Assembly: GCF_024700885.2 (NCBI RefSeq)
Contig: NZ_CP117016.1
Strand: one strand, 5' to 3'
Origin: Escherichia coli
GTDB taxonomy: Bacteria > Pseudomonadota > Gammaproteobacteria > Enterobacterales > Enterobacteriaceae
DNA length: 64,000 nt
The notes under the pieces were generated by a model, which was given only the letters and a program-made list of their open reading frames with translations, searched no databases and was not told where the DNA came from. Below, in pieces: positions 47,373 through 53,307 of the stretch. Both the position numbers and the translations under genes were made by a program. The first letter of the stretch is position 1, and the number at the start of each line of letters is the position of its first letter.

Positions 47373-47966
47373 ATGCAAAAAGTTGTCCTCGCAACCGGCA
47401 ATGCCGGTAAAGTGCGTGAGCTGGCGTCGCTGCTTAGCGACTTCGGTCTTGATATCGTGGCCCAAACAGACCTCGGCGTAGATTCCGCTGAAGAAACCGG
47501 CCTGACCTTTATCGAAAACGCGATTCTGAAAGCGCGCCATGCGGCAAAAGTGACCGGTTTACCGGCAATTGCCGACGACTCCGGTCTGGCGGTAGATGCG
47601 CTGGGTGGCGCGCCGGGTATTTACTCCGCGCGTTATTCCGGTGAAGACGCGACCGATCAAAAGAACCTGCAAAAACTGCTGGAAACAATGAAAGACGTAC
47701 CGGACGACCAACGTCAGGCGCGTTTCCACTGCGTGCTGGTATATCTGCGTCACGCGGAAGATCCGACTCCGCTGGTATGCCACGGCAGCTGGCCGGGCGT
47801 GATTACTCGTGAACCAGCGGGTACTGGCGGCTTTGGTTATGATCCAATCTTCTTCGTACCTTCCGAAGGAAAAACCGCTGCCGAACTGACCCGCGAAGAA
47901 AAGAGCGCCATTTCCCACCGTGGTCAGGCGTTGAAACTGCTGCTGGACGCTTTACGTAATGGTTAA
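47373..47966 (+). CDS. rdgB: dITP/XTP pyrophosphatase
   Basis: 197 aa, [21 protein letters not shown]... Confidence 0.93.
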
Positions 47967-49095
47967 ATTACCGCCGCTGAGTCTCTACATTCACATCCCG
48001 TGGTGCGTGCAGAAATGCCCGTACTGCGATTTCAACTCTCACGCGTTGAAAGGAGAAGTGCCGCACGACGATTATGTTCAGCATCTGCTTAACGATCTGG
48101 ACAACGATGTGGCTTACGCTCAGGGCCGTGAAGTGCAGACAATCTTTATTGGCGGTGGTACGCCGAGCCTGCTTTCCGGCGCGGCGATGCAAATGCTGCT
48201 GGACGGCGTACGTGCGCGTTTGCCGCTGGCAGCGGATGCAGAGATTACTATGGAAGCGAACCCTGGTACGGTTGAAGCCGATCGCTTTGTCGATTATCAG
48301 CGTGCTGGTGTGAACCGCATCTCTATTGGTGTGCAGAGTTTTAGCGAAGAAAAGCTGAAACGACTTGGGCGCATTCATGGCCCGCAAGAAGCGAAACGAG
48401 CGGCAAAACTTGCAAGCGGGCTGGGGCTGCGTAGTTTTAACCTTGATTTGATGCATGGGCTGCCGGATCAATCACTGGAAGAGGCGCTTGGCGATCTGCG
48501 CCAGGCCATTGAACTGAATCCGCCGCATCTTTCCTGGTATCAACTGACCATCGAACCTAATACGCTGTTTGGCTCGCGCTCTCCTGTACTGCCGGACGAT
48601 GACGCGCTGTGGGATATTTTCGAACAGGGGCATCAGTTATTAACCGCAGCGGGCTATCAGCAGTATGAAACATCCGCTTACGCCAAACCAGGTTATCAGT
48701 GCCAGCACAATCTCAACTACTGGCGATTTGGCGACTACATCGGTATTGGCTGCGGCGCGCACGGCAAAGTGACCTTCCCGGATGGGCGCATTCTGCGTAC
48801 CACCAAAACGCGTCATCCGCGTGGTTTTATGCAAGGAAGGTATCTGGAAAGCCAGCGTGATGTCGAAGCCGCAGATAAGCCGTTTGAGTTCTTTATGAAT
48901 CGCTTCCGTCTGCTGGAAGCCGCGCCGCGCGTGGAGTTTAGCCAGTATACTGGCCTTTCTGAAGAAGTTATTCGCTCTCAGTTAGACGAGGCCATCGCTC
49001 AGGGTTATCTCACAGAATGTGCGGATTACTGGCAGATAACGGAACATGGTAAATTATTCTTAAACTCACTTCTTGAATTATTCCTCGCTGAGTAA
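47959..49095 (+). CDS. hemW: radical SAM heme chaperone HemW (YggW)
   Basis: 378 aa, CxxxCxxC ([10 protein letters not shown]); overlaps rdgB stop. Confidence 0.92.
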
Positions 49096-49097
49096 TC

Positions 49098-49130
49098 ATT
49101 AATGCGCCTGCGGGCGCATTAATCACTTCT
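49098..49130 (+). terminator. perfect palindromic hairpin after hemW
   Basis: ATTAATGCGCC-TGCG-GGCGCATTAAT followed by CACTTCTTTT. Confidence 0.55.
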
Positions 49131-49408
49131 TTTACCCCCCCGTTAATTAACTTCGGCAAAAATATATTTCTTACTGAATAAATATCGACGATATTTATTA
49201 TATATATTTAGTGAATATTTACTCATCATTTATTGATTATAAACATGTACAACCTGGCGCACAAAATTAATATTTAATTTCTGACTTTATTTCAAGTTGT
49301 GATAAACATAGACAAGTTGTCAGACAGGTTAACCAATTTGTCGCACAAAGCACTGATAAGCACAATTAGATATCAACCAATTTCCATCCTTCAACAGGGA
49401 GTTTTTTT

Positions 49409-50395
49409 ATGAAAATGAGGTCATTTACCCGCTCATTAGTCTGCGCATCCTTGCTGGCTCTGGTTAGCACTGGCGTAAACGCCGCAGAAAAAGTGACGTT
49501 AAAGTTAGCACACAACCTGGAAAGAAGTCATGTTGTACATCAGAGTTTTGAAGAGCTGGCGAAAGAGGTAAAACAGCTGTCAAAAGGTAATATGGTGATC
49601 CGTATTTATCCCAGCAGCCAGATGGGTAATGCGCGAGAAACTATGGAGTTGTTGCAAAATGGTGCACTGGATATGACCAAAGGTTCCGCCAGTGATCTGG
49701 AGTCTTTTGATAATATTTATGCTATCTATAATTTGCCGTTCTTATTTAAAGATCAGGCGCACTTCAACAAAGTGGTTTTTGGTGAAGTTGGTAAAGAAAT
49801 TATGGATTCAACAAAAGATAAAGGCTTTTTTGCTTTATCAGCTTATGTAGCGGGTACACGCAGTTTCTATGCGAAAAAACCGATTACTAAGCCAGAAGAT
49901 CTTAAAGGGCTGAAAATTCGTGTTCAGCCAAGCCCGACCACCATCAAAATGATTGAACTGATGGGTGGCTCACCCACTCCAATTTCATTTGGCGAAGTTT
50001 ATACTGCGATGCAGCAAGGTGTAGTAGATGGCGCAGAAAATAACGTGCCTTCCTGGGTGCAGACTCGACATATCGAAATTGCCAAAGTCTTTTCTGAAGA
50101 TGAACATGCCTCAATTCCTGACTTTTTGGTTATCTCCACCAAAACATGGAATAAATTAACCCCAGAACAGCAACAAATCCTCGAAACAGCGGCGAAGAAA
50201 TCCGAAGCTTATCAACAAAAATTGTGGGAAAAAATTGACGCTGACACACGTGCTCAGGCGAAAGCTATGGGTGGTGAAATCGTTAAGGTTGATAAAGCCC
50301 CATTCCGTGCCGCAGTTCAACCTCTGTTTGACGACTTCAAAAAAGATCCAAAACAAGCTGCTTTGTTAGAGAAATTCGACAACGCTGCTCAATAA
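49409..50395 (+). CDS. TRAP transporter solute-binding protein (DctP family)
   Basis: 328 aa, signal peptide, DctP-like, conserved Arg in ..AGTRSF.. Confidence 0.82.
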   Translation: MKMRSFTRSLVCASLLALVSTGVNAAEKVTLKLAHNLERSHVVHQSFEELAKEVKQLSKGNMVIRIYPSSQMGNARETMELLQNGALDMTKGSASDLESFDNIYAIYNLPFLFKDQAHFNKVVFGEVGKEIMDSTKDKGFFALSAYVAGTRSFYAKKPITKPEDLKGLKIRVQPSPTTIKMIELMGGSPTPISFGEVYTAMQQGVVDGAENNVPSWVQTRHIEIAKVFSEDEHASIPDFLVISTKTWNKLTPEQQQILETAAKKSEAYQQKLWEKIDADTRAQAKAMGGEIVKVDKAPFRAAVQPLFDDFKKDPKQAALLEKFDNAAQ

Positions 50396-50430
50396 TATTT
50401 CGGGCCAGTCTCTGGCCCTGATTTTCCAGG

Positions 50431-50943
50431 ATGCTTACAATGATATTTAACCGCCTGAAACTTGCGGTAGACCGCGTCATTGCCGCGTTTTCTGTCGCCG
50501 TAATGCTTGCTCTGGTTGTATGCGTAGTCTGGCAAGTATTTAGCCGCTACGTACTTAACCAGCCAAGTACATTAACCGATGAACTGGCACGCTTTTTGAT
50601 GATCTGGGTAGGATTATTAGGTGCTGCATATACCGTCGGCGCGCAGAGACATCTCTCTATCGATTTATTTGCTCTCGCCCTGAATAAGCGCAAGCAATTA
50701 CTTCTTAGTATAGTCATTAACGTTCTTATTTTAGGTTTTGCCGGTTCGGTCATTGTGACTGGTGGCCTGAAATTAATTGATAAAACACTGGCAACATCAC
50801 AGGTATCTGCCGCGATGCAAATACCGATGGGATACGTATATATCATTCTGCCATTAAGTGGATTGGTGATGATGTTTTATGCCTTGTGTTTTATTAATCA
50901 AAGCATTCAACAACTGAAACAACCTGCGCAGGAGGCCAGTTAA
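50431..50943 (+). CDS. TRAP transporter small permease (DctQ family)
   Basis: 170 aa, 4 predicted TM segments. Confidence 0.8.
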   Translation: MLTMIFNRLKLAVDRVIAAFSVAVMLALVVCVVWQVFSRYVLNQPSTLTDELARFLMIWVGLLGAAYTVGAQRHLSIDLFALALNKRKQLLLSIVINVLILGFAGSVIVTGGLKLIDKTLATSQVSAAMQIPMGYVYIILPLSGLVMMFYALCFINQSIQQLKQPAQEAS

Positions 50944-52244
50944 TGGATAGTTATATCGCGCTTACACTGTTTGGCTGTTTTTTTGTGCTGGTCTTTATTG
51001 GTGTGCCCATTTCGTTCTCAATCGGTATTGCCACTGTAGCTTCAATGCTGTTGATGTTTCCCTGGGATATCGCGGCAATCACTGTTTCGCAGCGACTGGC
51101 TAATGGACTGGATAACTTTGCCCTATTGGCAATCCCCTTTTTCATCTTTGCCGGAACGCTGATGAACAGCGGCGGTATTGCGATACGTTTGATTAACCTC
51201 GCCCAGGTAATGGTTGGCCGCGTTCCTGGTTCGCTTGGTCATGTGAACGTCCTGGCGAATATGATGTTTGGTTCCATTTCTGGTTCAGCCGTTGCGGCAG
51301 CTGCTGCCGTTGGTGGCACACTGAATCCCATTCAGACCAAAGAAGGTTATGATCCGGCATTTTCTACCGCTGTAAACGTCTCATCTTGTATTACTGGATT
51401 ACTGATACCGCCCTCAAACGTGTTAATTGTGTTTTCCCTGACAGCTGGCGGCGTTTCTGTAGCATCGTTATTTATGGCGGGATATTTGCCAGGGATCTTA
51501 ATGGGTCTCGCGGTAATGATAGTCTGCGGCATTATTGCTAAACGCCGTGGCTACCCACTTTCAGAAAGAGCAACCTTTGCTCAGGCATGTAAAGCTTTTC
51601 TGGATGCCTTACCAAGTTTGCTTCTGGTGTTCATTGTAATGGGCGGCATTCTGGGCGGCATTTTTACCGCAACTGAAGCGTCAGCAATTGCCGTTGTCTA
51701 CACATTTATTCTCTCGGTGCTGATTTACCGGGAAGTAAAATGGCGCGATTTACCCAAACTGATTCTGGAATCGGTTGTTACCACTTCGATTGTATTACTG
51801 TTGATCGGTTTTTCCGTGGGCATGTCCTGGGCAATGACCAATGCTGATATTCCTTATATGATCAGCGACGCATTGATGGGGATTTCTGATAACCCACTGA
51901 TCATATTGCTGCTGATTAATATCGTCTTATTAATTGTCGGCATCTTTATGGACATGACACCGGCTGTACTAATCTTCACACCAATCTTCTTGCCGATTGC
52001 ACAAGAGCTGGGAATGGATCCGGTACATTTCGGTATTATGATGGTGGCTAACCTTTGTATTGGGCTGTTAACACCGCCGGTGGGTAGTGCGCTATTTGTT
52101 GGTTGTTCTATTTCAGGTGTGAAGATTCAACATTTGATCAAACCATTGCTGCCATTTTATGCCGCATTGTTAATCGCGTTGATGATGATCACTTACATCC
52201 CGCAAATATCCTTGTTCATTCCACAGCTACTAGGGCTAATGTAA
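50943..52244 (+). CDS. TRAP transporter large permease (DctM family)
   Basis: 433 aa polytopic membrane protein; ATG overlaps dctQ stop (TAATG). Confidence 0.85.
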   Translation: MDSYIALTLFGCFFVLVFIGVPISFSIGIATVASMLLMFPWDIAAITVSQRLANGLDNFALLAIPFFIFAGTLMNSGGIAIRLINLAQVMVGRVPGSLGHVNVLANMMFGSISGSAVAAAAAVGGTLNPIQTKEGYDPAFSTAVNVSSCITGLLIPPSNVLIVFSLTAGGVSVASLFMAGYLPGILMGLAVMIVCGIIAKRRGYPLSERATFAQACKAFLDALPSLLLVFIVMGGILGGIFTATEASAIAVVYTFILSVLIYREVKWRDLPKLILESVVTTSIVLLLIGFSVGMSWAMTNADIPYMISDALMGISDNPLIILLLINIVLLIVGIFMDMTPAVLIFTPIFLPIAQELGMDPVHFGIMMVANLCIGLLTPPVGSALFVGCSISGVKIQHLIKPLLPFYAALLIALMMITYIPQISLFIPQLLGLM

Positions 52245-52252
52245 AAAATAAT

Positions 52253-52283
52253 TTGCCGGATAACTTTTTATATTATCCGGCAA
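52253..52283. terminator. hairpin between convergent dctM-like gene and yggM
   Basis: TTGCCGGATAA-loop-TTATCCGGCAA 11-bp stem. Confidence 0.5.
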
Positions 52284-52299
52284 AGGTACTTAACATGAG

Positions 52300-53307
52300 T
52301 TACTTAATCACTCCATTGCGCCGCAGTTGTTCGGTATCTTTTTTCCAGCGTTCATTAGCCTGATTGATATCGTCAATTTTCATCAAAATCGCGACTTTTT
52401 TACTGTTTATTTCTGAAACTTTCATCGTTAACGGATATTGCCCTTTCTCGAGCGTTATCCAGTCATCCTGCAATTTACGGCTAAGTTTTTGTGATTGCAG
52501 AAAAGTCTGTCGCCGTTGTTCGTTGATATCGAAATCTCGCTTCTGCTGAATTGGCACTTCATAACACTCTGCACTCTGTTTATGACATGCCACAATCGCC
52601 GGTTGATAAACCTCTTTGTCATATTTAACCGCGAAAGCCTCGCTATCGTTCTGTTTATTAAACTCATCACGCTGTTGGTGAATTTTTTTAAAGGCGTCTT
52701 CGCGGGTCATTTGCTTACCGTTTGCATCTTTTCCCCAATATGCATCCGCTGCTTTCTGCGCCGCCACCATTTGCTTATCAAGCGCTTTCACTTCCTTTTC
52801 CAGCGCAGGAATCGAGTTCTTCTGGTTATTCAACGCTGATTCAAGCTGACTAAAGCGATAATTGAAATCTTCGCTATTCACGATCAGATATTTATTATTC
52901 GTTTTGATATCGTCGACCACCCGTCCACGATCGCTGGCTGCCGCCTGAAAAGAGTAAAAGTTCACCGACCAGCCAGACGCGGGCGTTCCTTTACTGGTTA
53001 ACATCGCCGAGAATTTTACCGGTTTATCTTTCGTCCAGGTCTGTTCGAGCAGTTCGTAATCTGCCAACTGACCGACCCAGGTATAGAGATCGTCACTGGA
53101 AGAGACATCGCCTTCCGCTGACCAGGTGGCCTGATTACCCTTAGCATCAAGATTTTTTAAGCTGATGGCATCAAGCTTGAGAATGCCGTGATACTGCTTT
53201 TTGAATTGATCTTTTAAGATATTTTCAGTTGGCGGTTCGCCATCTGCCCAGACATTACCAGTCATCAACATAAGCAGCGCCGTGCCAACAATCCATTGCT
53301 TTTTCAC
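52300..53307 (-). CDS. yggM: DUF1202-family periplasmic protein YggM
   Basis: 335 aa with signal peptide MKKQWIVGTALLMLMTGNVWA. Confidence 0.85.
   Translation of the reverse strand: MKKQWIVGTALLMLMTGNVWADGEPPTENILKDQFKKQYHGILKLDAISLKNLDAKGNQATWSAEGDVSSSDDLYTWVGQLADYELLEQTWTKDKPVKFSAMLTSKGTPASGWSVNFYSFQAAASDRGRVVDDIKTNNKYLIVNSEDFNYRFSQLESALNNQKNSIPALEKEVKALDKQMVAAQKAADAYWGKDANGKQMTREDAFKKIHQQRDEFNKQNDSEAFAVKYDKEVYQPAIVACHKQSAECYEVPIQQKRDFDINEQRRQTFLQSQKLSRKLQDDWITLEKGQYPLTMKVSEINSKKVAILMKIDDINQANERWKKDTEQLRRNGVIK

Follow-up and report, generated by a model that had tools for sequence, protein, structure and literature searches.

A stem-loop directly downstream of hemW in Escherichia coli is probably the 3′-end terminator hairpin of the yggS-hemW transcript

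Directly behind the stop codon of hemW, the window (the whole 64,000-nt stretch of Escherichia coli DNA that was analysed) carries a perfect inverted repeat, beyond which lies an operon for a TRAP transporter. The question raised by this locus is whether the repeat is the hemW terminator, a protein-binding palindrome or part of a scar from an insertion of the TRAP segment, all of which had been offered when the DNA was read from its letters alone (the sequence-only reading). The repeat itself was confirmed exactly as claimed. Two 11-nt arms that are 100% complementary enclose a 4-nt TGCG loop at 49098-49123, and the window at 49087-49141 reads gctgag-TAA-tc-ATTAATGCGCC-tgcg-GGCGCATTAAT-cacttcttttaccccccc. 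Two bases (TC) separate the palindrome from the hemW stop codon (TAA at 49093-49095), so that it begins at the third base past the stop. The hemW ORF encodes 378 amino acids and is the final gene of a yggS-yggT-yggU-rdgB-hemW run; strain 1190 is 100% identical to the window over 721 nt, and its RefSeq annotation names the gene hemW. The coordinates of the features are given in Table 1.

Chance origin of the palindrome is excluded. Its pattern, with up to three mismatches allowed, occurs once in the window and in none of 100 dinucleotide shuffles, and the window contains four perfect hairpins with a stem of at least 11 bp, compared with 0.18 expected from first-order Markov simulations. As RNA, the 30-nt element folds with an energy of -17.2 kcal/mol (z = -5.2), and 0 of 200 shuffles fold as well. 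An intrinsic terminator was taken to have a stable, GC-containing stem of about 5-14 bp and a loop of 3-8 nt, and the perfect 11-bp stem with its five G-C pairs and 4-nt loop lies within these limits. The placement is also that of an intrinsic terminator: on the coding strand, at the end of a gene and operon, 2 nt past the stop of hemW. The palindrome very probably acts as RNA, as the 3′-end terminator stem-loop of the yggS-yggT-yggU-rdgB-hemW transcript, which it separates from TRAP. The hairpin is real, non-random, evolutionarily maintained and previously unannotated; it is of an ordinary kind and implies no new mechanism. Because related genera all have a hairpin at this place, it is most likely neither an insertion scar nor a protein-binding site.

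Table 1. Positions of hemW, the hairpin and the TRAP segment in the window
Feature	Position	Strand	Basis or details
hemW (radical SAM heme chaperone)	47959-49095	+	ORF list; RefSeq/PGAP annotation of strain 1190, K-12
Hairpin 5′ arm, ATTAATGCGCC	49098-49108	+	Sequence, inverted-repeat search, folding
Hairpin loop, TGCG	49109-49112	+	Sequence, folding
Hairpin 3′ arm, GGCGCATTAAT	49113-49123	+	Sequence, inverted-repeat search, folding
Imperfect U-rich tail, CACTTCTTTT	49124-49133	+	Terminator-like in consensus scan; 4 U in first 8 nt, 6 in 10
C-rich, G-poor 80 nt, candidate Rho loading region	49124-49203	+	C 17, G 6; C7 at 49135-49141
TRAP operon, split from hemW by the hairpin	49409-52244	+	ORF list; RefSeq annotation
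TRAP substrate-binding protein	49409-50395	+	ORF list; annotation
TRAP small permease	50440-50943	+	ORF list; annotation
TRAP large permease	50943-52244	+	ORF list; annotation
Perfect 12-bp hairpin TTTGCCGGATAA-N9-TTATCCGGCAAA, right-hand counterpart closing the TRAP segment	52252-52284	.	

When the window and K-12 are aligned, homology ends exactly at the hemW stop and restarts exactly at the yggM stop codon (52300). The K-12 hemW-yggM spacer is 154 nt long and consists wholly of REP elements. The palindrome is absent from it, as the sequence-only reading had supposed, so the finding that would have spoken against a link with the TRAP segment, an identical sequence in K-12, was not made. The TRAP-less B2 strains E2348/69 and SF-173 have a single REP in the same spacer, and the REP in TRAP-less E. 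coli begins about 9 nt past the hemW stop, in the same slot as the hairpin. A genome-wide search located the palindrome in about 1,483 of 5,426 complete E. coli genomes (roughly 27%), always together with the TRAP operon; the hemW-to-TRAP junction is present in 1,471 of the 5,426. Every carrier has one copy, at a single site, and the second place reported for it is the same palindrome on the opposite strand. Only two alleles of the hairpin are found in E. coli, the exact palindrome in 977 genomes and a C-to-T variant, GCGTC, in 505. In + strand RNA the variant keeps all 11 pairs via G.U (-14.5 kcal/mol), whereas on the - strand the top of the hairpin melts, with a change from -16 to -9.5 kcal/mol, and the symmetry of the DNA is broken. 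This allele points weakly to the hemW-sense RNA as the working form, as it represents one mutational event for which, given a transition, the prior of the + strand being favoured is about 50%. In one further genome, E. coli AREA_492 (L048, 401-500), an IS1 interrupts the 3′ arm behind GGCG and parts hemW from the remaining spacer.

The distribution of the hairpin beyond E. coli was followed through relatives of the TRAP substrate-binding protein, which were sought in one genome per species and gave 44 loci. hemW lies directly upstream of TRAP in Escherichia sp., Citrobacter (6 species), Pseudocitrobacter, Kluyvera (7), Klebsiella (7), Phytobacter, Pluralibacter and other Enterobacteriaceae, and the hemW-hairpin-TRAP arrangement is common to at least 8 enterobacterial genera. 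The length of the hemW-TRAP spacer is nearly constant, at 293-315 nt in 23 of 25 loci. A perfect stem of 6-16 bp follows the hemW stop in all 25 hemW-TRAP loci, and it starts 2-15 nt past the stop in 23 of them, which span Escherichia, Citrobacter, Pseudocitrobacter, Kluyvera, Klebsiella, Phytobacter and other Enterobacteriaceae. In each of the 22 comparable loci, the first 60 nt past the hemW stop have the lowest folding energy of the spacer. The mean energy of this first 60-nt segment is -17.6 kcal/mol, compared with -3.3, -3.3 and -8.9 kcal/mol for the next three, and the longest perfect stem averages 10.9 bp in the first segment and about 5 bp elsewhere. In C. amalonaticus the stem has 7 bp and lies at offset 33, as part of a REP-like element. 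The hemW-TRAP spacer of this species (L006, 4432-4960) is 527 nt long instead of about 305 nt, and at its start stands a nested inverted repeat of REP-like type, GGGTGATG...CCCGATA-N10-TATCGGG...CATCACCC; apparently, a repeat element was inserted there at the hairpin slot.

While the position is kept, the sequence of the hairpin turns over between genera. The 5′ arm reads ATTAATGCGCC in Escherichia, ATATATTTCGCCATTA in Kluyvera, TTATCCCGTTAT in Klebsiella and TTGTCCTTCCC in K. pneumoniae. The hairpins are not alignable across genera, and covariation was counted by subgroup, with Klebsiella and Phytobacter inspected by eye, outside the count. When Kluyvera and Pseudocitrobacter are aligned, compensatory, double-sided changes affect 5 of 16 pairs, a number reached in 0 of 500 shuffles, and 87% of cells are paired in the true register compared with 34-60% in slid registers. 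In the Escherichia/Citrobacter subgroup one pair is doubly changed, which is matched by 149 of 500 shuffles and amounts to no significant covariation; these hairpins have a common core, GCGCC-N4-GGCGC, and vary little. The outer ATTAAT/ATTAAT pairs are confined to Escherichia, and we suggest that their perfect pairing may have come from template-switch 'perfection' of a quasipalindrome. Kluyvera and Pseudocitrobacter have perfect, AT-rich stems of 13-16 bp; the stems of typical terminators are shorter than this.

The sequence behind the stem bears on the mode of termination, and hairpin tails were graded by raw U counts. In the window the tail is CACUUCUUUU, in which the first three bases are CAC and four of 8 nt are U. 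In a relaxed consensus scan the site is terminator-like on the + strand only, and the T-rich tail is likewise present only on that strand. In the second E. coli allele, the tail is replaced by CACTTCTTCC... and, with the sequence CACUUCUUCC / CACUUCUUCCCC, is poorer in U than that of the window allele. The first 8 nt past the stem contain only 1-4 U in most genera. A clear U-tract is found in the Citrobacter homologues, and both the C. braakii hairpin (TGCGCC-TGTC-GGCGCA-TTTTCTTC) and that of Citrobacter On2M (ATGCGCC-TGCG-GGCGCAT-ATTTATTT) end in a canonical U-tail. The proposal that the repeat is the hemW terminator is supported by a hairpin that is positionally conserved in all genera, by compensatory changes and by the canonical U-tails of Citrobacter. 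Further downstream, the length of the poly-C run at 49135-49141 varies among E. coli alleles: the window has C7 after TTTTA and strain E2855 an uninterrupted C12, and the longer run of E2855 removes part of the U-run behind the hairpin. Over 23 loci, the 80 nt past the hairpin contain C and G at 404:170, with C exceeding G in 22 of the 23. A stable stem, the lack of a strong U-tract and an excess of C over G downstream, which together characterize protective stem-loops, are all found at the hemW hairpin.

Because its U-tract is weak, the E. coli hairpin is not established as a canonical intrinsic terminator, and it may act as an intrinsic terminator that is weak, or it may instead protect the mRNA end upstream of a C-rich Rho site. 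The structure, its constant place despite sequence turnover, its compensatory changes and its tie to hemW are shown; we infer termination itself, and its split between intrinsic and Rho-dependent routes, along the following lines. RNA polymerase would run past the hemW stop codon, and the 11-bp stem with a UGCG loop would form, with an energy of about -17 kcal/mol. The imperfect U-rich tail would permit partial intrinsic termination. On transcripts that read through, Rho would probably load on the C-rich, G-poor stretch just downstream and terminate, and 3′ exonucleases would then trim the Rho-ended transcripts back to the hairpin. In this way the hairpin would set and guard the 3′ end of hemW mRNA and would keep read-through out of the TRAP operon, which lies 285 nt downstream and is regulated separately.

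The close spacing to the stop codon also suggests a role in translation or mRNA decay, in which the stem would slow the terminating ribosome and either lower HemW output or trigger cleavage of the mRNA. The start of the hairpin 2-15 nt past the stop in 23 of 25 loci, as well as the REP in the corresponding slot of TRAP-less E. coli, would suit such a regulator, and an effect of this kind was reportedly described by Liang, Rudd and Deutscher in Mol Cell in 2015 for a REP within about 15 nt of the stop codon. The position is not diagnostic, however, as terminators often lie this near to stop codons, and we regard the regulator as an unlikely explanation of the hairpin. A stop-proximal brake could possibly add to the terminator role, since the two are compatible. 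It is similarly doubtful that the hairpin was selected beyond termination as a brake that acts via ribosome stalling to tune HemW synthesis or the decay of hemW mRNA, with hairpin and REP types being interchangeable in function.

The region upstream of TRAP (49240-49400) contains blocks that are conserved in at least 8 genera. The spacer blocks with sequence conserved across genera are CTCGG-N7-CGAG, AACCCAGCGCACAAAA, TGTCnGACA-N13-ATGTCATACAGAAA, AGATAT..ACCA and GGAG, and the E. coli blocks are CAACCTGGCGCACAAAA (49250-49266), GTTGTCAGACAGG...TTTGTCGCACAAAG (about 49315-49350, corresponding to TGTCnGACA-N13-ATGTCATACAGAAA elsewhere), AGATATCAACCA (49369-49380) and a GGAG ribosome-binding site. 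The blocks look like a GntR-type operator pair and a promoter; no regulator gene is adjacent to TRAP in E. coli. A second perfect palindrome, AATAAATATCG-A-CGATATTTATT with 11-nt arms, is located at 49177-49199, 54 nt downstream of the hairpin, where the sequence ahead of TRAP is AT-rich; a half-motif related to it, TTATCGAATAAT, is all that occurs at this position in other genera. About 30-50 nt past the hemW hairpin, Citrobacter, Kluyvera, Klebsiella and even Edwardsiella have a CTCGG-N5-7-CCGAG inverted repeat (49146-49165 in the window; about 4735-4762 in L008), the E. coli version of which is degenerate (ACTTCGGCAAAAATA), with its 3′ half lost.

In such a setting, the 26-bp palindrome might itself be a DNA operator at which a dimeric transcription factor regulates hemW or TRAP. 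It is perfect, intergenic and upstream of a regulated operon, and the spacer region has further operator-like repeats. We nevertheless consider this very improbable. The sequence of the hairpin varies between genera, whereas the TRAP blocks AGCGCACAAAA, TGTCnGACA...ATGTCATACA and CTCGG-N7-CGAG are conserved, and a structure that is conserved without its sequence, beside sequence-conserved motifs, argues against a protein-binding site. An operator would be expected to have a half-site conserved among orthologous loci, and the hairpin has none, while adjacent motifs are conserved. Some 285 nt separate the palindrome from the start codon of TRAP, and the symmetry-breaking allele is present in 505 of about 1,483 carriers in E. 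coli. It is also missing wherever TRAP has another upstream neighbour: Buttiauxella, Edwardsiella, Mangrovibacter and Enterobacillus keep the TRAP blocks and lack the hemW-type hairpin. In Buttiauxella the terminator of the preceding gene itself lies ahead of TRAP, and in Edwardsiella and Mangrovibacter the upstream gene is divergent and there is no hairpin. By this comparison of neighbourhoods, the hairpin goes with hemW rather than with the TRAP module. The protein-binding palindrome of the sequence-only reading is therefore set aside, as there is no cross-genus sequence conservation and a third of carriers break the symmetry yet keep the + strand stem.

The palindrome had further been described as the left edge of a TRAP insertion. 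It does mark where the difference from K-12 begins on the left, but insertion is the part of that description that fails: in the simplest reading of the compared loci, the hemW-hairpin-TRAP order looks ancestral and the TRAP-less, REP-filled state of K-12 looks derived, because hemW-hairpin-TRAP synteny is common to many genera. Identity to C. amalonaticus is 94% for DctP and 92.6% for HemW, and this matching divergence fits vertical descent. Over the final 300 nt of hemW, the window and K-12 diverge by about 11%. Identity to K-12 is 82-96% per 100 nt over hemW 48390-49095, 98-100% further upstream and 96-100% in yggM, and the diverged hemW 3′ haplotype (48390-49095) is linked to the presence or absence of TRAP. 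Both hemW 3′ alleles are equally distant from other genera (70-81% identity), and by this measure the divergence is a deep haplotype split within Escherichia rather than the result of transfer from another genus. Strain HH45 joins a hemW 3′ end of the window type to a REP spacer; this recombinant indicates recombination between the two hemW haplotypes.

For these reasons, an origin of the hairpin as an insertion scar or mobile-element end (a terminal inverted repeat or attachment site) that arose when the TRAP segment was inserted is extremely unlikely. The absence of the palindrome from K-12, the exact break of homology at the hemW stop and a 9-nt direct repeat, TTAATCACT, which brackets the segment at 49119-49127 and 52304-52312, would fit such an origin; synteny in at least 8 genera and the agreement of the DctP and HemW divergences contradict it. 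There is no integrase or transposase gene in the TRAP segment, its ends have no mutual similarity apart from the 9-nt repeat, and each genome has one copy. The copies of TTAATCACT, one in overlap with the 3′ arm and one within the last codons of yggM, flank the 3.2-kb segment missing from K-12. A synthetic excision junction of TTAATCACT, with the hairpin fused to yggM, was found in 0 of 5,426 E. coli genomes; the single match covering at least 80% of the query is the recombinant strain HH45 and not a hairpin-yggM fusion. The bracketing repeat is probably due to chance, since the predicted deletion junction was found in no genome. When a 48-mer was searched in plasmids and phages, full matches were obtained only in mislabelled chromosomal records. 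Three contigs (L003, L004 and L044) that are 99-100% identical to the E. coli locus belong to public MAGs or genomes labelled Collinsella, Bacillota and Alicyclobacillaceae, which is probably a binning or contamination error. With neither terminal repeats nor mobility genes nor other sequence contexts to be found, no occurrence in plasmids or phages and synteny across at least 8 genera, the insertion scar was discarded. At the right-hand end of the segment, the TRAP large permease gene and yggM converge on the 52252-52284 hairpin, which likely serves both as a terminator. Literature searches on a TRAP operon beside hemW/yggW/yggM returned nothing relevant.

That the hairpin terminates a minus-strand small RNA similar to STnc130 is barely credible: a weak Rfam match (RF02084; minus strand 49092-49219, 23.6 bits, E 0.17-0.35), an identical GCGCC-CGCA-GGCGC terminator core in its alignment on the minus strand and a promoter-like site at 49188-49161 on that strand are outweighed by a score far under the 55-bit gathering threshold, by the location of STnc130 beside dmsA in Salmonella and not beside hemW, by the lack of a U-run past the hairpin on the minus strand (GAUUACUCAG) and by the common C-to-T allele, with which the minus-strand hairpin folds at -9.5 instead of -16 kcal/mol. 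The Rfam scan, which covered 48900-49500 on both strands, gave sub-threshold chance matches only.

The value of the hairpin as the probable terminator of hemW is chiefly for annotation: in the roughly 27% of E. coli that have this TRAP transporter, it fixes where the yggS-hemW operon ends, and it marks the TRAP operon as a transcription unit apart, which has a conserved regulatory region of its own. The evolutionary reading of the locus is corrected as well, in that the transporter appears to be ancestral here and K-12 to have lost it, with REPs filling the gap, instead of having an insertion site that stayed empty. The locus also illustrates, cleanly and on a small scale, how a terminator can keep its position and pairing while its sequence turns over between genera.

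Among known systems, REP/BIME elements resemble the hairpin in forming mRNA 3′ hairpins and in using the same slot past the hemW stop in TRAP-less E. coli. The hemW hairpin is unlike them in having no similarity to the REP consensus and a single copy per genome, and its sequence does not resemble that of the REPs behind hemW in K-12 and E2348/69. REPs occur in hundreds of copies. A closer likeness is to the 3′-terminal stem-loops of Rho-dependent transcripts, which guard against 3′ exonucleases and were described in a 3′-end study of K-12 (Dar & Sorek 2018, PMC6061677). In common with these protective stem-loops, the hemW hairpin has a stable stem, no strong U-tract, no upstream A-tract and more C than G downstream (17:6 in 80 nt), although its tail contains more U than the Rho-dependent class (PMC6061677) usually has. 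With the intrinsic terminators of Enterobacteriaceae it shares a GC-cored stem, a tetraloop, a location directly past the last gene of the operon and a T-rich stretch behind the stem on the coding strand. It departs from them in E. coli, where six extra A-U pairs push the U-run 3 nt off the base of the stem (CACUUCUUUU) and part of the U-run is lost in a third of carriers. The Citrobacter hairpins have the canonical form of an intrinsic terminator.
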